Below, piece after piece: positions 33,967 through 41,992 of a DNA stretch of 64,000 nucleotides. The position numbers and the translations under genes are program-made. The stretch lies in the NCBI GenBank assembly GCA_046329775.1, contig JAXLTX010000003.1, positions 405,391 to 469,390 on the forward strand, given 5' to 3'. The notes beneath the pieces were generated by a model that was given only the letters and a program-made list of their open reading frames with translations, was not told the origin of the DNA and did not search any database. The stretch is from Chitinophagales bacterium (lineage in GTDB: Bacteria > Bacteroidota > Bacteroidia > Chitinophagales > JADIYW01). Numbering within the stretch: the first letter of the stretch is position 1; each line of letters opens with the position of its first letter.

Positions 33967-34007
33967 TATCCTGCAACATCATTTAATTTATTCAAGCTTT
34001 TTTCAAT

Positions 34008-34035
34008 AAAATCCTCACAATTATGTGAGGATTTT
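34008..34035 (+). terminator. Rho-independent terminator of queA
   Basis: A perfect 12-bp stem, aaaatcctcaca / tgtgaggatttt, has the loop atta and is followed by a T-rich tract. Confidence 0.75.
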
Positions 34036-34108
34036 ATTGTATTGTTGATATAAATGGAAAACAAAAAAATCCTGAAACTCATATTCTTGTTACTTTTGCC
34101 ACCCACTC

Positions 34109-35299
34109 ATGACGGTTTTCAAGAATATAAAGGAGTTGATCAAGACACTGGATTGGTCGAGAGATTTGCTGTCAGAAATGTTTGAAAAGCGCAATACCTT
34201 CTCCTACAAATTTGATATGGCCGTAATGGTGCTGGGTGATGTGGACAGAGTGGAGAAACTTATCGAGACGGAAATCATCCGTAAAAACGGCTCCTTTCTG
34301 GAAATCGATGAAAAATACCTTGACTTCTTTGAATTGGTATTGGAAGTGAATGAACAAATCAGCACGGCATTCATTCAGGACAACATACAACAGGTAAAAG
34401 ACAGCATCAATTTCTACCTGAAAGAGAATAAGGAGGATAAGCAATATTCTTACTTAAAGCAGGTTAAATCTGCATTGCAAAAAATAGGTCGAATCACCAC
34501 CAGAAGTATCATTGACCTGAATAGAAATATTGACAACACCTTCAAGACCGAACCGAACTATAAAATCAAGCTGAATAAGCTGGAGAATTTCGACCTCAAG
34601 CGGATGCAGATAAAAGACCTCATTGAACAGACAGACAATCTGATTACAACGGATGAACTCACGTTCTTCACGACGGCGCTGGATGTGGAGCTTAACCAGA
34701 TTGTAAACCGTCTTCGCCTGCAATTGGTGGATGCCCGTCACAATATCAGTGAGACACACAACCAGATTATCGAATACATCAACCAGACCAAACACAAATC
34801 GCAATTACTGGAAAAGGTGAAACAGGTGAAATACCTGCGCGATATGTTTGAACTAAAATCCAAAACCAATTTCGAGGAAATACTGATGGATTCCAATGCC
34901 GTGCTGTTTACCGGCAGGGAACAATTCAAAACGAGATTATCACTGGAATATCTGCAAACGGATCAGGCTCGGGATATCCTGGAAAATGCCGTCAGAAAAT
35001 TCAAAACCAAAAACAAGGCAACGGTCCAGCTCTCAGAAGCGATATCGGATAATTACCTGCAAACAGAGGAAGAACAGGAACAGTTCATCCATCTGGAAGA
35101 TTTAAAAAGAACGTTTACCGCATCCGGCAACCATCTGTATGATTTCATCATGAATTATAATTTCTCCAGAGAAGTTGATTTCAGCGAACGTGTCACCCTG
35201 TTCTGTAAAATCGTTTCCATCTACGACAAGGAATTTGAGATAACGGAGAAATTCGGATCCCGAGATAATATTGAATTTGCTATAATCTACCCAAAATAA
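34109..35299 (+). CDS. jetA: Wadjet/Mks-type kleisin-like subunit (JetA/MksF-like)
   Basis: This 396-aa, mostly helical ORF is the first gene of a four-gene operon. Its stop TAA abuts the next ATG with zero spacing. The call rests on position, size and operon context rather than on a sequence motif. Confidence 0.55.
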   Translation: MTVFKNIKELIKTLDWSRDLLSEMFEKRNTFSYKFDMAVMVLGDVDRVEKLIETEIIRKNGSFLEIDEKYLDFFELVLEVNEQISTAFIQDNIQQVKDSINFYLKENKEDKQYSYLKQVKSALQKIGRITTRSIIDLNRNIDNTFKTEPNYKIKLNKLENFDLKRMQIKDLIEQTDNLITTDELTFFTTALDVELNQIVNRLRLQLVDARHNISETHNQIIEYINQTKHKSQLLEKVKQVKYLRDMFELKSKTNFEEILMDSNAVLFTGREQFKTRLSLEYLQTDQARDILENAVRKFKTKNKATVQLSEAISDNYLQTEEEQEQFIHLEDLKRTFTASGNHLYDFIMNYNFSREVDFSERVTLFCKIVSIYDKEFEITEKFGSRDNIEFAIIYPK

Positions 35300-35872
35300 A
35301 TGATGAATCTACCAGACAAAACCGGCGACATCTTTGAACGACTGAGCAAAGGGAATTTCATCTGTTCCAACAGCACGGATGAATACACCTGCAGGCTTTA
35401 CGACATCATCAATGAAAATGAAGAAACGCTTTACAATTATTTTCTGGCCATCCATTTTATTCTGGAACGGGGCGATGAGTACTTCTATTTCTCAAGAAAA
35501 GAACAAAAGGCGGATCTCGAGGCTAAGATAGCCCGAGCGGAAAAATGGATTGACCTGATAGACTTCCTGAAAGCCTTTGACAGTTCCTTTACAAACGGCT
35601 TCCGTTTTTACCCAAACGACATAGAAGTAAAAATCAGGGTTGACATTAACCTGCGCGACAAGCTGGATAAGCTAAAAAAACATATCGGTGAAGCGAAAAG
35701 CTATACAGAGAAGATCGGTGCACTGATTAGGCTGCTGGAAAAGGAAGGTTTCGTGGAACTCGAGAATGAAATCAACAACCAATACAAGGTGGTTGCCGCA
35801 TTCAAATATGTGGAACAACTGATATTAAACATTAACATACCCGAAGACAAACTGAATGAGATACCTGAATAA
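35300..35872 (+). CDS. jetB: Wadjet/Mks-type small accessory subunit (JetB/MksE-like)
   Basis: This 190-aa ORF is the second gene. Its N-terminal FERLSKGNFICSNS...LY resembles the MukE/MksE N-terminal signature. It overlaps the next gene by 17 nt. Confidence 0.55.
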   Translation: MMNLPDKTGDIFERLSKGNFICSNSTDEYTCRLYDIINENEETLYNYFLAIHFILERGDEYFYFSRKEQKADLEAKIARAEKWIDLIDFLKAFDSSFTNGFRFYPNDIEVKIRVDINLRDKLDKLKKHIGEAKSYTEKIGALIRLLEKEGFVELENEINNQYKVVAAFKYVEQLILNINIPEDKLNEIPE

Positions 35873-38800
35873 AATCATTTTCATCAACAGCGCCACCATC
35901 AAATATGCGGAAATCATTGTGGGTGGCAATGTGCACTTCATCGGCACACAGGGGGTGGGCAAAAGCACCGTGCTGCGCTCCATCTTATTTTTCTATAATG
36001 CAGACACTCAGAAACTTGGAATAAAGCCCGGACAAAAGTCATTTTACGAATATTACTTCCCTTCTGCAGATTCATATATCATCTATGAGATAGCAAAAGA
36101 AACAGGCACCTTTTCTGTCTTGTGCTACAGACAATCAGGTAAAATCTGCTATCGATTCTTTGACAGCGAGTACCGAAAGGAATTCTTCATCAGCGAACAA
36201 AACAAGGCATTCGAAAGCTGGGATAAGATCAAGGAACAATTCAACAAGTATCAGATTACGTCTTCCAACAAGATAGACCGCTACGAAGACTATCGAGATA
36301 TCCTGTACGGAAACAATGATGGAAGGAAAGAATACAGAAAATATGCATTGCTGGAAAGCAAGCAATATCAGAATATACCGAGAACGATTCAGAATGTATT
36401 GCTGAATGCGGAACTGAAAGCCGATTTCATAAAGCAGACCATCATCAAATCCTTAAACGATGACGATATTGAAATTGACCTGAAGGTTTACACGCACGAG
36501 CTGAACACGTTCGACCATCAACTGAACGACATCAGAAAGTGGACGGATAAAAACAAGAACGGCGAAATACTGGTAAGGAAACAGGCGGAACAGATTGCGC
36601 GTTTACATACCAATATCCGATTTCTGGAGAATGAAAAAAATCAATTGGTAAAACAACTTACCTGGATAATCCGGCATATCGAAACACATCTCCCGAAACT
36701 GGAAGACAAACTGGACATGCAGGAAAACAAAAAGGCTGTTCTGGAGAAAAAGGCGGAAGAGTTAACGGATATTTTTCAAAAAAAGAGAGAGAGACTGCTG
36801 GGTGAGATTAAGGTGCTGAAGAACGACCTGGATAAAGCCAAGAAGAAAGAAGAGGAATATGACAAACAAAATATTGCGGATATCATACAGCGCGTTGGGA
36901 AAAAGGCGTTACTGCTTTCTCGACAGGAAAACCTACTGAACGAGAAGCAGATCCTGTCAGCACAGTTCACGGAGCTCACACAACGATTTGACGCCCTGCT
37001 GCATGAAATTGAAAACCAGAAACAGCGATTCCTGAATATCAAAAAAGAAGAGAAGAATGACCTGCAGGCTGCTTTCCTTCAATTACAACAGGATATTTCC
37101 ATGCAATTCAACAGGCAACTTCGTGAGATCAGAGAAGAGCACAAGGAGCGCCTGGACACTGTCAGGTTAAATCTGGAAGACAACAAACATTTGCAGCTGA
37201 CACTAAACGGCAAAAGGGCGGAGATAAGACACAAACGCTATTTTGAGACAGAAATAGAAATCAAGAAGACAGAAATCAATGAGATAAAGGCTATCAGGCA
37301 GCACTGTGAAAACCAGGTGATTCATTTCCAAAATCAGATAAAAGCCATTCAGACGCAATTTGATGCGGAAGAAAAAAGCAGGAATGAAACTTCCGAACGA
37401 CAAATTGAAAGGCTGCAGGAACAGACCGCTCAACTGCAGGAAGAGATCGATGCGATAGACTACAAAATAAACAACAGCAAAGATTCCCTGTACGGATGGC
37501 TGAACGAGCATTGTAAAGGATGGGAAAACAATATCGGTAAAATCATCCGGGATGACGAATCCGTGCTGTTCAATACTTCATTGCAACCGAAGCTTATAGA
37601 CAAATCTGCGGGATTCTACGGCATCGAAATCAATCTGGAAGAAATTAGCAAAAGCATAAAGACCGTTGCAGATTACAAAAAAGAAAAGAGCATCCTGGTG
37701 GCAAAGATGGATGCCCTTAAAACCGAAATCACGGAACAGTCCGAAACGCTTGCGACGGAGATTGAAAAACTGAAAAACAAGTACCAGCCAAAGATCAAAG
37801 AATACAGAAAAGAGATTGACCTGCACAATTATACGGTTGAGCAGAACAAATCAAAACTGGAACAGGCGCTGATTGCCCTGAGCGACTTTGAAAGGAATGC
37901 ACGACTGGAAAAAGAACAGGATCTGCAAAAGATAGAACGAGAGATCGGAATCGCAGTTGATACAGAATTGAAGGCTAAGGAAAACCTTCAAAAAATTGAA
38001 CTGGAAATCGGGAAACTGGAACGGGAGAAAGACAAAGAAAAAGAAAAGAAGATAGCGGAAGAAAAGAACAGAACCGACGCACTCATCCGACAAATAGAAA
38101 CGGATATCAGAAATTCCTCGGAAGAGCTGGATGCCAGAAGAGACGCCATCTTGGAAGAAAAGAACAGGGAATTGACCGGCAAAGGTGCGGATACAAAACG
38201 CCTCCAGGAGATAGAAACGGAAGTCAATCTGCTGAAAAATGAACTCAGGTTCATAGATAGCAATATTGCATTGGTGGAAAGGTATAAGTATGACAAGCTG
38301 GAATTGCTGGATAAAATGCAGGAATTCAAAAATCAGAAAGACATCTTAGAAAGGAATCTGGAAACCGAGGAAGATAAACACCGCCATCAGAAACTTAAAC
38401 TCAATAAGGAACTGCAGGAATTCAATGAGTTCATCTCAGGTCTGAAAACCAACATCAACAGCTACAAGGCCGACCTTTCAGAGTTTGAATCATTCAGCAA
38501 GACGGAAATCTATCTGGCAATTCCCGACAAGTTCAAGGAGCTTAGAGATGAAAATAAATCTGACAAGCATTGCAGAAGCCTGATCAGAGAAATCAACCAG
38601 ACTGTCTACTCACTGATCGACAAACAAAACAAGTTGAAAGAGGAAGTCACCCAATTTACCGGAAACTTCTCTGCAGAAAATATCTTTAAATTCAAAACCA
38701 GCTTTACCAGATCCGATGAATTCCTTCAATTCGCCGACGAACTGAATGAGTTCATGGAAGAAAATAAAATTGAACGCTTTGAAAAAGATGTGAATGAACG

Positions 38801-39521
38801 CTTTGCATACATTGTGCTTTCCATAGGAAAAGAAACGGAAAACCTGATGTCCAGAAGCGGTGAAATACAGAAAACCATCTCAAAAATCAACAATGATTTC
38901 CTTACCAAAGGTTCATTCGTTACGGCTATCAAGAAGATAGAATTACGTTGGGTGGAAAGCAGCAACAAGATTGTCTCCTACCTCTTGAACATACAGCAAT
39001 TCAGGAACGAACATCCGTTCATAGGCAGCAACAATCTGTTTGCCGAACAGGACAGCGACAAAAAAAACAAGCAGGCCATTGAGCTGCTGAAAGGATTATC
39101 AAAAGCGATAGCGGAATCAAAGAAAGATAAGATAAGCCTGTCGGATTCTTTTGAATTGCAGTTCAGGATAGTGGAAAACCAGAACGATACCGGATGGGTG
39201 GAGAAGATCGCCAATGTAGGCAGTGAAGGAACAGACATTCTCGTAAAAGCCATGATAAACATCATGCTGCTGAATGTCTCCAAAGGTGAATCATCCAAAA
39301 GTTTTAAAGACTTCAAGCTGCATTGCATGATGGATGAAATCGGAAAACTGCACTCCAACAACGTAAAGGGAATCCTGCAGTTTGCCAACGAAAGAAATAT
39401 CCTGTTGATCAACGGTTCGCCGGAAGAGAGCAATGCACTGAGCTATAAGCACATCTACCAACTTTATAAAGATGACAAAAGTTTCACGAAGGTAAAACGA
39501 TTAATTTCTAACTTTAATTGA
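35856..39521 (+). CDS. jetC: SMC-like ABC ATPase with a long coiled coil (JetC/MksB-like)
   Basis: This is a 1221-aa ORF. It has an N-terminal Walker A (GTQGVGKST), about 650 aa of K/E/Q-rich coiled coil, and a C-terminal signature-like GSEGT. The Walker B / D-loop is LHCMMDEIGKL. Confidence 0.8.
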   Translation: MRYLNKIIFINSATIKYAEIIVGGNVHFIGTQGVGKSTVLRSILFFYNADTQKLGIKPGQKSFYEYYFPSADSYIIYEIAKETGTFSVLCYRQSGKICYRFFDSEYRKEFFISEQNKAFESWDKIKEQFNKYQITSSNKIDRYEDYRDILYGNNDGRKEYRKYALLESKQYQNIPRTIQNVLLNAELKADFIKQTIIKSLNDDDIEIDLKVYTHELNTFDHQLNDIRKWTDKNKNGEILVRKQAEQIARLHTNIRFLENEKNQLVKQLTWIIRHIETHLPKLEDKLDMQENKKAVLEKKAEELTDIFQKKRERLLGEIKVLKNDLDKAKKKEEEYDKQNIADIIQRVGKKALLLSRQENLLNEKQILSAQFTELTQRFDALLHEIENQKQRFLNIKKEEKNDLQAAFLQLQQDISMQFNRQLREIREEHKERLDTVRLNLEDNKHLQLTLNGKRAEIRHKRYFETEIEIKKTEINEIKAIRQHCENQVIHFQNQIKAIQTQFDAEEKSRNETSERQIERLQEQTAQLQEEIDAIDYKINNSKDSLYGWLNEHCKGWENNIGKIIRDDESVLFNTSLQPKLIDKSAGFYGIEINLEEISKSIKTVADYKKEKSILVAKMDALKTEITEQSETLATEIEKLKNKYQPKIKEYRKEIDLHNYTVEQNKSKLEQALIALSDFERNARLEKEQDLQKIEREIGIAVDTELKAKENLQKIELEIGKLEREKDKEKEKKIAEEKNRTDALIRQIETDIRNSSEELDARRDAILEEKNRELTGKGADTKRLQEIETEVNLLKNELRFIDSNIALVERYKYDKLELLDKMQEFKNQKDILERNLETEEDKHRHQKLKLNKELQEFNEFISGLKTNINSYKADLSEFESFSKTEIYLAIPDKFKELRDENKSDKHCRSLIREINQTVYSLIDKQNKLKEEVTQFTGNFSAENIFKFKTSFTRSDEFLQFADELNEFMEENKIERFEKDVNERFAYIVLSIGKETENLMSRSGEIQKTISKINNDFLTKGSFVTAIKKIELRWVESSNKIVSYLLNIQQFRNEHPFIGSNNLFAEQDSDKKNKQAIELLKGLSKAIAESKKDKISLSDSFELQFRIVENQNDTGWVEKIANVGSEGTDILVKAMINIMLLNVSKGESSKSFKDFKLHCMMDEIGKLHSNNVKGILQFANERNILLINGSPEESNALSYKHIYQLYKDDKSFTKVKRLISNFN

Positions 39522-40378
39522 TGAAGCTGCCACTCAATATTGCCATTAGATTGCAATCCATGTTGCAGGGCGAAGAGATTCTGGCCAGCAGCATGAAACA
39601 GACACTGATATTGAAGATGGTAGATGATGGCGTGGTAAAGAGCAGATACATCAGCAAGACGAAACACCGCTATTATATTGACAATAAAGAAAATCTGGAA
39701 AATTATCTGTCTGTCGATTTTGGCATACGCAATTTATCCGAATATATACAGCAACTGAAAAATCCGGATATCACCCGAAGTGATGCCGTAAAGGTGGCAT
39801 CCGACTCAAAACTTAGAAACATCAGGACATTCAAAGGATTCCTGATCAACAGCCTCGAGCCGGTCTGCGTGAAGATGCGACAGCAGGAAATCACCTTGCA
39901 ACCGACAGACGGAATCTTTCATTTCATCCATGATTATGAATCCTTTGAAATACCCGCAAACATTACCGTAGTAGGCATTGAGAATGCGGAAAACTTCAGG
40001 CATATCAACAGGCAACAACAACTATTCCGCAACATAACACCGCTCTTCATTTCGCGCTATCCGCAAAACAAGGACGCCATCAGATGGCTGAAAAACATTC
40101 CGAACAACTATCTGCACTTCGGAGATCTTGATTTTGCAGGCATCCGTATTTTCATGCACGAATACAGGAAACACCTGGGCGACAGGGCAAAATTTTACAT
40201 TCCTGACAACATCGGATATCTGTTGAAAACCTACGGAAATGAAAGGCTGTACAATACCCAACTCTACAGACAACCTGCACTTGTGAGCGCGGACGATGCC
40301 GAACTTGCTGAACTCATCCGCCTGATGCATACAAATAAAAAAGGACTGGAACAGGAAGTTTTCATTAATTTAGATTGA
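39521..40378 (+). CDS. jetD: Toprim-domain nuclease subunit (JetD/MksG-like, short form)
   Basis: The ATG overlaps the jetC stop (TGATG). The Toprim acidic motifs are VVGIENAENF (Glu) and HFGDLDFAGIRIF (DxD), as in the JetD C-terminal (DUF2220) domain. At about 285 aa it is shorter than typical JetD proteins. Confidence 0.75.
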   Translation: MKLPLNIAIRLQSMLQGEEILASSMKQTLILKMVDDGVVKSRYISKTKHRYYIDNKENLENYLSVDFGIRNLSEYIQQLKNPDITRSDAVKVASDSKLRNIRTFKGFLINSLEPVCVKMRQQEITLQPTDGIFHFIHDYESFEIPANITVVGIENAENFRHINRQQQLFRNITPLFISRYPQNKDAIRWLKNIPNNYLHFGDLDFAGIRIFMHEYRKHLGDRAKFYIPDNIGYLLKTYGNERLYNTQLYRQPALVSADDAELAELIRLMHTNKKGLEQEVFINLD

Positions 40379-40390
40379 CGATACTTTCAG

Positions 40391-40993
40391 ATGTCTATAT
40401 TTCCTTTTCATAGAGATGAGAATCTATTGCCTTTCGGTGGCACCGTAAACTATTTCGGGAAAATATTTACCACTCAAGATGCCGACCATTACTTTCACAT
40501 TTTGATGAAGACCATTGACTGGCGAAATGATGAGGCTTTTATTTTCGGCAAACATATCATTACCGCACGCAAGGTAGCCTGGTATGCTGACAACACCATC
40601 CCATACACCTATTCTAACATTACCAAAACGGCCCTACCCTGGTCAAAGGAATTATCCGAGCTAAAGTTGATTACGGAACGGCTGACAAATTCATCCTTTA
40701 ATTCCTGCCTGTTGAACCTATATCACAATGGCAGTGAAGGCATGGCATATCACAGCGATGATGAAAAGTCACTGGCAAGGAACGGCACCATCGCATCATT
40801 GAGTTTCGGTGCAGAAAGAAAATTCCTGTTCAAACATAAGACCAACGGACATACCGTATCCATGCAGCTGGAACATGGCAGCCTGCTGCTTATGAAAGAT
40901 GAAACACAACAGAACTGGATGCATCGTCTGCCGACGACTTCAAAAATAAACTCAGCACGGATCAATCTGACTTTCAGACAAATGCTTATTTAA
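40391..40993 (+). CDS. alkB: AlkB-like Fe(II)/2-oxoglutarate-dependent dioxygenase (alkylation repair)
   Basis: This is a 200-aa ORF with LLNLYHNGSEGMAYHSDDE (HxD), WMHRL (distal His) and RINLTFR. It starts 12 nt after the jetD stop. Confidence 0.85.
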   Translation: MSIFPFHRDENLLPFGGTVNYFGKIFTTQDADHYFHILMKTIDWRNDEAFIFGKHIITARKVAWYADNTIPYTYSNITKTALPWSKELSELKLITERLTNSSFNSCLLNLYHNGSEGMAYHSDDEKSLARNGTIASLSFGAERKFLFKHKTNGHTVSMQLEHGSLLLMKDETQQNWMHRLPTTSKINSARINLTFRQMLI

Positions 40994-41032: not shown

Positions 41033-41950
41033 ATGAAAATCAAAAAGTTTAATTGTATCAGTTGTGGCGCACCGAAAATAAATCCGTATGCATCACCCTA
41101 TATTGTTTGTGATTTCTGCGGTACATTTACCGATGTGGATTTTGAACAGGGTTTGGACGCCTGGAATAAAGACCCGAAGCGTACTGAAAATTACATGAAA
41201 GGAAAGATAAGATTTGAATCAGAACTGGCGGAACTGTTGGGGAAAGATAAAAGAGAAGGCTACAGGAAAGCGCAATCAGCATACTGGGATTTCTACTACA
41301 AGACTTATCCTGAATACCTGCCGCCCACCATCACTTCCGTTGAAAAATACAAACTGTATCTGGATATCTGTGCAGACGTCTCCACCTTCTATGCATTTGA
41401 TCCGGCTTGGGCAAAGAAGGCCGGCGAACAGGCGCTCTTACAACAGGGTATCTCTTATGGTGTGGAAGATGGAAAAACCTACGCTGATACCATTCCTTTT
41501 TTTAAATTAAGTGATTACTTCATCAACTATGTGAAAGAAGCCAATGCCGATTTTTATGCAAACCCCGATTACAGCATCATGCTGGAACTGCTTCCTCCCG
41601 ATGTGCACTTCAAGATGAAGATGTCAATGTTTGTTCAGGCATGGATTCCATACCTTCGGGCAAAAGATGCAGAACGGCTTTTACTGCAAACCGGCTTTAG
41701 CACTGAGTTTGTCGATGCAGAACCTGCAGAGGGAAAGCATCAGCCATGCCAGTTCTGTCAAAAAGATATTTTTGTATTGGATGGCGCATACAAGGCTATG
41801 TGTGAACACTGCCTGAAAGTAAATACCATCCGACAAGTGTTCCATTGTATTTCATGTGGCATGGAAAACCAGGTACCTGAGAATCCAGCCAAACCAATCA
41901 ATTGCACCTCTTGCGGAACAGAAAACCGGTTGATAAGAGGCTGGTTTTAG
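41033..41950 (+). CDS. Hypothetical protein with four CxxC...CxxC zinc-ribbon-like pairs
   Basis: This is a 305-aa ORF. The pairs are CISCGAP...CDFCGT at the N-terminus, and CQFCQ...CEHC and CISCGMEN...CTSCGTEN at the C-terminus. Confidence 0.6.
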   Translation: MKIKKFNCISCGAPKINPYASPYIVCDFCGTFTDVDFEQGLDAWNKDPKRTENYMKGKIRFESELAELLGKDKREGYRKAQSAYWDFYYKTYPEYLPPTITSVEKYKLYLDICADVSTFYAFDPAWAKKAGEQALLQQGISYGVEDGKTYADTIPFFKLSDYFINYVKEANADFYANPDYSIMLELLPPDVHFKMKMSMFVQAWIPYLRAKDAERLLLQTGFSTEFVDAEPAEGKHQPCQFCQKDIFVLDGAYKAMCEHCLKVNTIRQVFHCISCGMENQVPENPAKPINCTSCGTENRLIRGWF

Positions 41951-41966
41951 CAAATGCGGTTCGATT

Positions 41967-41987
41967 CTTTTCAGCTTCACTGAAAAG
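41967..41987. terminator. Hairpin between convergent genes (zinc-ribbon gene and purD)
   Basis: The 8-bp stem cttttcag / ctgaaaag has the loop cttca. Confidence 0.45.
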
Positions 41988-41992
41988 ATATT

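Follow-up and report, generated by a model that had tools for sequence, protein, structure and literature searches.

A compact MukBEF-like four-gene cassette of the Wadjet group in a Chitinophagales bacterium

Described relatives and layout of the cassette

Wadjet-type systems are a main barrier to plasmid uptake and hence to genetic tractability. Types I to III (JetABCD/MksBEFG/EptABCD), exemplified by E. coli GF4-3, P. aeruginosa PA14, C. glutamicum and Neobacillus vireti, combine a MukF/JetA-like kleisin, a KITE subunit, a hinged structural maintenance of chromosomes (SMC) ATPase and a nuclease with a CAP-like and a Toprim part, the latter carrying an E/DxD motif. Cleavage by types I and II is restricted to circular DNA and follows scanning by the SMC machinery, and their nucleases are not exchangeable between them. 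The same four subunit roles, in the same F-E-B-G (jetA-B-C-D) order, were assigned here to a four-gene cassette of a Chitinophagales bacterium (GenBank assembly GCA_046329775.1). The cassette lies in a stretch of 64,000 nucleotides (contig JAXLTX010000003.1, positions 405,391 to 469,390 of the forward strand), which is referred to as the window and provides the coordinates used below. It belongs to the MukBEF-like 'Wadjet group' (MksBEFG), of which it is a compact member with a complete set of subunits, and consists of four genes behind a terminator:

34004..34039, no strand assigned: queA terminator hairpin, a perfect 16-bp stem with a 4-nt loop and a T-rich tail (100% complementary inverted repeat)
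34109..35299, + strand: gene 1, kleisin (MksF/JetA/MukF-like), 396 aa
35300..35872, + strand: gene 2, KITE subunit MksE, 190 aa
35856..39521, + strand: gene 3, SMC ATPase (MksB/JetC/MukB-like), 1221 aa
39521..40378, + strand: gene 4, putative MksG/JetD-like nuclease, 285 aa from the ATG

A sequence-only reading of the window had described four same-strand genes with abutting or overlapping ends behind the queA terminator, and the open reading frame (ORF) map and direct reading of the junctions agree with it. Genes 1 and 2 abut (AAA TAA directly followed by ATG), genes 2 and 3 overlap by 17 nt, with the gene 3 ATG at 35856 inside gene 2 and the gene 2 stop at 35870-35872, and genes 3 and 4 meet in the sequence TGATG. 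The four genes are coupled as an operon, the upstream edge of which is marked by the queA hairpin. In the ORF map gene 4 starts with a TTG at 39518 and comprises 286 aa; as its homologues begin with MKLP, the true start is the ATG at 39521. In public annotation the four proteins are named 'hypothetical', 'condensin complex protein MksE', 'ATP-binding protein' and 'DUF7281 domain-containing protein', respectively.

In defence finders, Wadjet types I-III are defined by hidden Markov models (HMMs), namely DUF3375/DUF2397, DUF4194/DUF2398, JetC and DUF2220/JetD_C; the cassette was compared with them through Pfam and PADLOC 2.0. No match to JetA (kleisin; DUF3375/DUF2397) was obtained for gene 1 and none to JetB (KITE; DUF4194/DUF2398) for gene 2, the latter reaching 13.8 bits (E 0.049) with DUF4194 at a cut-off of 32.7. 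JetC1 matched residues 1-43 of gene 3, the P-loop, with an E-value of 1e-4 and did not extend across the protein. Gene 4 scored 22.6 bits with JetD_C (cut-off 22) and 1.8e-9 with JetD1, here with its Toprim half only (residues 136-283 to 256-406 of 409). This HMM comparison had been proposed along with the guess of an unclassified subtype, which its outcome bears out: as judged by HMMs, the cassette does not appear to be a type I-III Wadjet. A canonical Wadjet operon scanned in parallel gave a disjoint Pfam set (DUF2397, DUF2398, SbcC_Walker_B, DUF3323 and DUF2399). Compared with types I-III, the kleisin of the cassette is about 100 aa shorter and the nuclease about 100-120 aa shorter, close to the 100 aa estimated earlier for JetD; the SMC arms measure about 330 residues each. 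Accessory distribution and occasional plasmid carriage are common to both.

The condensins MukBEF of E. coli and MksBEF of P. aeruginosa share the kleisin-KITE-SMC logic of the cassette, but they lack a nuclease and act on the chromosome. MukBEF is vertical in its clade and essential in fast growth, whereas the cassette is patchy, mobile and furnished with a conserved Toprim nuclease.

From sequence comparison, the nearest described relatives seem to be compact Mks operons of Gamma- and Betaproteobacteria with the gene order B-E-F-G. Burmann et al. 2025 (PMC7617805) tabulate such operons in Data S1 under the names mksB/E/F/G, with Psychrobacter, Acinetobacter, Vibrio breoganii, Ferrimonas and Methylomonas among the listed carriers. 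Three plasmid-borne examples were considered:

Acinetobacter indicus pB18-1 (NZ_CP044456.1): B-E-F-G operon, in the published table
Pseudomonas Leaf58 pBASL58: B-E-F-G operon found in this analysis, same order and sizes
Aromatoleum EbN1 plasmid 1: B-E-F-G operon found in this analysis, same order and sizes

The pBASL58 and EbN1 operons probably belong with the published group, as probably does the DUF3584 operon described from Shewanella by Price et al. A DUF3584 SMC, a PF21980 MksE, a DUF7281 nuclease and a kleisin without a Pfam family are common to the cassette and the B-E-F-G operons (Acinetobacter and Pseudomonas scanned). DUF3584 was matched in the latter with up to 1e-165 and PF21980 in the Pseudomonas operon; some B-E-F-G MksE proteins score below the PF21980 threshold. 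Subunit sizes are nearly identical (there about 1240, 210, 400-416 and 285-290 aa), both operon types often reside on plasmids and both are missed by the PADLOC JetA/B/C models. In contrast, the order is F-E-B-G here, as seen in 54 loci, and pairwise similarity is confined to the N-terminal head of the SMC protein, with 34% identity over 134 aa. BLASTP of MksE found nothing. Using hhalign, alignments of the family matched three-sequence B-E-F-G alignments of MksF (probability 90.8%, E 1.2e-6), MksE (93.5%, E 2.2e-7) and MksG (95.8%, E 8e-9), whereas no homology was seen between family profiles and single Acinetobacter proteins. Taking SMC and the other comparisons together, each subunit of the cassette has a homologue in the B-E-F-G operons.

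Among the genera looked up in the Data S1 table (PMC7617805), the Bacteroidota branch to which the cassette belongs was not found. Burmann et al. applied a filter of at least 400 aa for MksF, and the MksF of the cassette, with 396 aa, falls just below it. A limited literature search for a fourth Wadjet type returned nothing relevant. The lineage introduces no new principle but is an uncharacterised compact variant of the Wadjet group/MksBEFG; part of it is covered by Pfam families, and a sister clade is contained in one published table (PMC7617805). The earlier description as a shortened Bacteroidota form holds with regard to compactness, given the shorter kleisin and nuclease. It does not hold with regard to the restriction to Bacteroidota, since a proteobacterial sister clade bears the same Pfam signature and copies occur in Desulfuromonadales.

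Subunits and a proposed mode of action

Gene 1 could not be tied to JetA by the sequence-only reading, and sequence searches gave no Pfam, NCBIfam, PADLOC or PDB match for it. No Pfam family was found among 52 diverse members of its family, down to 20% identity, and the family profile retrieved nothing from the PDB sequences. Searches of the PDB with all four single proteins using phmmer likewise gave nothing meaningful. An AlphaFold2 model of gene 1 (predicted local distance difference test, pLDDT, 77; predicted template modelling score, pTM, 0.42) contains an N-terminal winged helix (residues 1-66), a helical bundle (68-261), a disordered linker (264-328) and a C-terminal winged helix (329-395), the layout of kleisins of the MukF/MksF/JetA type. 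The best Foldseek match was MukF 9gm7_C (E 8.6e-5), accompanied by 7nz2, 3euh and 1t98 and by chain 8q72_E, which belongs to an entry for the JetABCD core of E. coli, with probabilities of 0.93-1.0. On the basis of the model, gene 1 encodes a kleisin with a MukF/JetA-like fold, which gives the kleisin role presumed in the earlier reading a structural footing.

Gene 2 matched the Pfam family MksE (PF21980) over its full length with 1.1e-40, in line with the MksE-like role proposed for it, and is a KITE subunit of the MksE/MukE/JetB kind. The Terrimonas orthologue bears the UniRef name 'condensin complex protein MksE'. The N-terminus of the protein reads DIFERL (residues 10-15; 35327-35344) and contains 'IFER', which recalls the IFDR motif of type I JetB, the contact to the arm-CAP region of JetD. 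As DIFERL falls on the first helix when MksE of the B-E-F-G operons is aligned with it, this likeness may be coincidental.

Conserved motifs and domains of the two catalytic subunits were located as follows:

35943..35969, + strand: Walker A motif GTQGVGKST, gene 3 aa 30-38, 100% conserved in 48 family members
37476..37655, + strand: central hinge-like domain, gene 3 aa 541-600, from composition and conservation
39213..39233, + strand: signature-like motif NVGSEGT, gene 3 aa 1120-1126, S1123 and G1125 100% conserved
39318..39338, + strand: Walker B motif LHCMMDE, gene 3 aa 1155-1161, D1160 and E1161 100% conserved
39974..39997, + strand: Toprim glutamate GIENAENF, gene 4 E154 counted from the ATG, invariant in 51 sequences and the locus set
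40115..40141, + strand: Toprim DxD motif HFGDLDFAG, gene 4 D202 and D204, invariant

Gene 3 matched Pfam DUF3584 with 2.9e-56 over residues 18-1199. Its composition and conservation profile divides the protein into an N-head (1-210), an arm (211-540), a hinge-like region (541-600), the other arm (601-930) and the C-head (931-1221). The arms comprise about 330 residues each, about 660 in total, and the hinge-like region is the sole conserved stretch between them that is richer in glycine, proline and aromatic residues. No zinc hook (CxxC) was found in gene 3. When PDB sequences were searched with a C-head profile that takes in both the signature-like motif and Walker B, MukB was the sole meaningful match (E 0.004); NVGSEGT falls inside the stretch aligned to the MukB C-head, and Rad50, SbcC and RecN were absent from the PDB matches. 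The N-head profile found generic P-loop ABC proteins only and does not discriminate. Length (above 890 aa), Walker motifs, long arms, a predicted hinge and the missing zinc hook are those of a Wadjet-group SMC, and gene 3 is an SMC protein of the DUF3584/MukB-like kind with a hinge-like centre. The SMC-like ATPase recognised earlier from GTQGVGKST and LHCMMDE is thereby extended to a full-length head-arm-hinge-arm-head protein, and a kinship to RecN or SbcC, named beforehand as an outcome that would speak against it, gave way to MukB in the C-head search.

Gene 4 matched Pfam DUF7281 above threshold (6.6e-8, 32.8 bits), a family of which no mention was found in the literature. In the AlphaFold2 model (pLDDT 87.6) a winged-helix/CAP-like region occupies the N-terminus and a Toprim domain the C-terminus. 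Comparison with JetD/MksG structures had been suggested for this protein, and Foldseek matched P. aeruginosa JetD 7til with 6.7e-4, behind Topo VI-A (1.7e-5) and Spo11 (2.5e-5); the family profile found nothing among PDB sequences. Winged-helix/CAP and Toprim parts are common to Topo VI-A/Spo11 and gene 4, but the cassette has no B subunit and gene 4 comprises only 285 aa. The Pseudomonas B-E-F-G relative weakly matched the TOP6A-Spo11 Toprim Pfam family. As in the flanking MksG/JetD nucleases of the Wadjet group, a glutamate and a DxD motif are present, and these residues are invariant wherever gene 4 occurs, so the Toprim motifs IENAENF and GDLDFAG pointed out before are intact. The model and the motifs indicate a winged-helix and Toprim nuclease of the JetD kind with predicted catalytic activity. 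Its winged-helix region also contains an invariant Tyr75 and a conserved basic patch (S96, K97, R102); JetD-type proteins are reported to lack the catalytic tyrosine of Topo VI-A/Spo11. No phage carriage of gene 4 was found.

Taken together, the roles and order kleisin, small MksE-like subunit, SMC and Toprim protein named by the sequence-only reading hold for all four genes. A superficial resemblance to Wadjet might also be produced by other ABC-ATPase plus Toprim or SMC-like defence systems, such as PARIS AriAB, Gabija/OLD, Lamassu LmuB or Rad50/SbcCD-like complexes. The JetC match restricted to the P-loop and the unspecific N-head profile would be compatible with such a system, and an Acinetobacter relative weakly matches the LmuB coiled coil (E 1.6e-4). 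The same operon, however, encodes kleisin-fold and KITE proteins that are absent from those systems, gene 3 has no CxxC and resembles MukB in its C-head, and the gene 4 Toprim is of the Topo VI-A/Spo11/JetD type, with no OLD-family protein among its Foldseek matches. AriA/B or GajA/B matches were not found with PADLOC, and the two-gene composition without coiled-coil arms that characterises PARIS, Gabija and OLD does not apply here. The presence of the kleisin and KITE partners was the reason to reject systems of the Lamassu, Rad50 or PARIS type, a reading that is largely refuted and considered extremely improbable.

By analogy with type I and II Wadjet, the cassette probably senses circular DNA by extruding loops and then activates a Toprim nuclease. 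The four proteins would form a complex in which the kleisin bridges the head and neck of the SMC dimer and an MksE dimer is bound. This SMC-kleisin-KITE motor would load onto DNA and extrude loops with ATP. On a small closed circle it would run out of DNA and stall, and the stall would expose a bent stretch of DNA to the Toprim subunit, acting as a dimer, which could then cut the DNA via its E/DxD metal site. The chromosome is proposed to be spared because it is too large for full extrusion. What the analysis shows are the identities of the subunits, their intact catalytic motifs, the operon coupling and the mobility of the cassette; complex formation, extrusion of loops, specificity for circular DNA and an anti-plasmid outcome are inferred.

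Distribution and mobility

The kleisin was found in at least 174 of 185,579 genomes (one genome per species), mostly in Chitinophagaceae and other Bacteroidota. Since the scan was seeded with a closer gene 1 alignment, the diverse alignment being too divergent to serve as seed, this count is a lower bound. Some carriers belong to the Desulfuromonadales and one is a metagenome-assembled genome (MAG) of Campylobacterota, with 47-50% identity as for Bacteroidales. The carriers include soil and freshwater Chitinophagaceae and plasmids of the gut Bacteroidales Phocaeicola, Parabacteroides and Bacteroides. Homologues number more than 1100 for gene 1 and exceed 500 for gene 4. The order 1-2-3-4 is kept in 54 of 83 loci analysed (designated by L numbers below), and in most of these 54 the 17-nt overlap of genes 2 and 3 recurs together with a 1-4-nt overlap of genes 3 and 4. 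The cassette is far beyond chance because homologues are abundant and the four-gene order and the overlaps recur. No conserved fifth gene was seen beside it in the loci analysed; flanks differ between loci, and the flanking genes of the window are shared by none of the 83.

While the overlaps between genes 2, 3 and 4 are constant in most loci, the gap between genes 1 and 2 ranges from 0 to about 1100 nt. In L014, L015, L022, L026 and L050 (and L031), all of Chitinophagaceae type, genes 2-3-4 are inverted and convergent with gene 1. The variable gap and the inversions suggest that the kleisin is a separable transcription unit. Genes of defence or mobile-element type are inserted between kleisin and MksE: a DUF4062 protein and a Schlafen AlbA_2/HATPase_c_4 protein in Desulfuromonadales (L052:11254-13349), a Fic/DOC protein (L018:11370-12173) and a RhuM-family protein (L071:11199-12245). 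The RhuM-family insert goes with a truncated cassette.

Decayed forms were also observed. Gene 4 is lost and genes 1-3 are kept in L011, L014 and L037, L001/L002 (11735-15417), L057 and L083 have an SMC gene that is divided between two ORFs or interrupted, and some loci retain kleisin-only remnants. The split SMC genes reflect either pseudogenisation or assembly error.

Copies of the cassette reside on plasmids of Phocaeicola, Parabacteroides, Bacteroides and Persicobacter. Full-length copies are found on Phocaeicola massiliensis plasmids (65 and 76 kb) and on Persicobacter replicons, among them a plasmid of 157 kb; in Persicobacter pPP6 (L085) a MobC/relaxase and HigB adjoin the cassette. The proteobacterial sister operons are likewise located on large plasmids, beside toxin-antitoxin genes. 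In a relative with 80% identity the cassette lies just 3′ of a tyrosine integrase and an HTH_17 gene. A neighbour-joining tree of the SMC proteins (unrooted, no support values) places the Desulfuromonadales within the Bacteroidota, two Terrimonas species in different lineages and the plasmid copies deepest. The cassette is an accessory, horizontally mobile module that has been transferred across phyla and has sometimes decayed, and the Bacteroidota form appears, by its sequence placement, to have moved into Desulfuromonadales.

The plasmid copies also raise the question whether the cassette is a weapon of mobile elements that eliminates competing circular replicons or stabilises its carrier, with the chromosomal copies as leftovers. 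This explanation would account for full-length copies next to mobilisation and toxin genes, for the plasmid-borne sister operons with toxin-antitoxin genes, for the integrase-linked copy and an RteC neighbour and for the deep branching of plasmid copies. Most copies, however, are chromosomal with ordinary flanks, and the branching order comes from an unrooted tree lacking support values. Moreover, the molecular mechanism would be the same as in the circular-DNA sensor proposed above and only the beneficiary differs. A weapon serving its element in the first place is regarded as quite improbable.

Further neighbours were noted at individual loci. In pPP6 (L085; 4445-6034 and 12604-16039) the cassette is bracketed by three paralogous AAA family ATPase genes, and the two that were scanned each combine an AAA-ATPase_like with a PD-(D/E)XK (PDDEXK_9) domain. 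In L001/L002 (8168-9949) a WYL-domain regulator and a homologue of RteC, a regulator known from Bacteroides conjugative transposons, lie 5′ of the cassette, and genes for an RNase_H_2-fold protein and exonuclease VII lie 3′ of it. MAGs titled Bosea thiooxidans, Rhizobium sp., Asaia bogorensis and 'Nostoc ellipsosporum NOK' (L026, L029, L031 and L059) carry Chitinophagaceae-like copies, with about 53% identity or within the Terrimonas 90% cluster; these MAGs with alphaproteobacterial or cyanobacterial titles are probably mislabelled or contaminated bins.

Plasmid defence or chromosome biology

Several observations weigh against the proposed sensor of circular DNA. The structural matches have low TM-scores (0.33-0.44), the gene 1 model has the pTM given above, and the B-E-F-G templates used in hhalign were only three sequences deep. 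Compared with type I JetD, gene 4 is missing roughly 120 residues at its N-terminus, the 'arm' part by which JetD touches JetABC. Carrier plasmids are circular and 65-157 kb in size and would have to be tolerated by a size-limited plasmid killer. Few of the cassette neighbours are of defence type (type III restriction enzyme, SNF2/ZorD-like helicases, WYL), a weak signal for which there was no control. At the locus in the window the cassette is flanked by housekeeping genes, base composition is unremarkable, and the queA-cassette-AlkB-like context is identical in a relative with 88% identity (L089), showing a stable position in the genus. Furthermore, the sole phenotype described for DUF3584 is cisplatin sensitivity with a motility defect in three Shewanella species (Price et al.), which points to chromosome or repair biology and not to plasmid defence.

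The missing arm implies that recruitment or docking of the nuclease must differ from JetD. Tentatively, the compact DUF3584/MksE/DUF7281 systems could make up a fourth type within the Wadjet group, with the cassette as a founding branch in Bacteroidota; the arm-less nuclease would then be recruited and licensed by the SMC motor via a different interface. In the light of the cisplatin phenotype of Shewanella relatives, such a type may not be confined to small plasmids as targets, and damaged or aberrant DNA of the chromosome could be among them.

A rival reading sees in the cassette a condensin for chromosome maintenance or tolerance of DNA damage, comparable to P. aeruginosa MksBEF or to MukBEF; its Toprim protein would act on chromosomal DNA, for instance by resolving or processing damaged or entangled molecules, and would not destroy plasmids. 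The genes downstream of the cassette have to be considered here:

40391..40993, + strand: AlkB-like 2-oxoglutarate (2OG)-Fe(II) oxygenase, Pfam 2OG-FeII_Oxy_2 1.2e-31
41033..41950, + strand: zinc-ribbon protein, 305 aa, multi-CxxC

In Shewanella, the cisplatin-sensitive DUF3584 mutants are co-fit with two neighbour genes, and numerous Wadjet-group members, including MukBEF, have no nuclease and organise chromosomes. The three loci that keep genes 1-3 without gene 4, the housekeeping flanks, the stable position in the genus and the DNA-repair-type oxygenase as next gene fit this reading as well. On the other hand, a core segregation factor is expected to be syntenic and vertical, whereas the cassette is patchy, varies in context, moves across phyla, resides on plasmids, adjoins an integrase in one relative and occurs in decayed copies. 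Gene 4 is conserved, its nuclease residues are invariant wherever it is present, and neither the AlkB-like nor the zinc-ribbon gene accompanies the cassette in the 83 loci analysed. We therefore regard a condensin of this kind as unlikely and retain the circular-DNA sensor as the preferred explanation.

With a kleisin of 396 aa, a KITE protein of 190 aa and a nuclease of 285 aa, the cassette is a naturally minimised SMC-nuclease machine, from which one could learn what portions of JetD and JetA are not needed to sense circular DNA. Together with its proteobacterial sister clade, it would permit a test of whether a chromosomal role of such systems lies behind the DUF3584 cisplatin phenotype. 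As the Wadjet models of PADLOC 2.0 miss the lineage and the kleisin has no family model, a detection gap exists, with a bearing on barriers to plasmids among Bacteroidota; the family alignments could seed HMMs for defence-finding tools.

The AlkB-like gene follows gene 4 after a spacer of 12 nt. Its PADLOC match 'CARF_2OG' was rejected as evidence for defence because it covers the 2OG domain only. The sequence-only reading had placed the cassette between queA and purD and had called it inserted. The first of these statements needs correction, as the AlkB-like and zinc-ribbon genes separate the cassette from purD; the second found no support, since no signs of recent insertion, that is flanking direct repeats, tRNA, integrase or GC shift, were detected in the window. 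Both downstream genes are local neighbours outside the conserved cassette; an AlkB-like gene lies 3′ of it again only in L089, where the next ORF is cut by the contig end. Two putative transcription signals frame the region:

34091..34098, + strand: candidate promoter TACTTTTG, by-eye match to TAnnTTTG, 10 nt ahead of the gene 1 ATG
41966..41988, + strand: first predicted + strand terminator 3′ of the cassette

The promoter candidate TACTTTTG resembles TAnnTTTG, the consensus of the Bacteroidota -7 promoter element. Given the position of the terminator, the AlkB-like and zinc-ribbon genes may be co-transcribed with the cassette.

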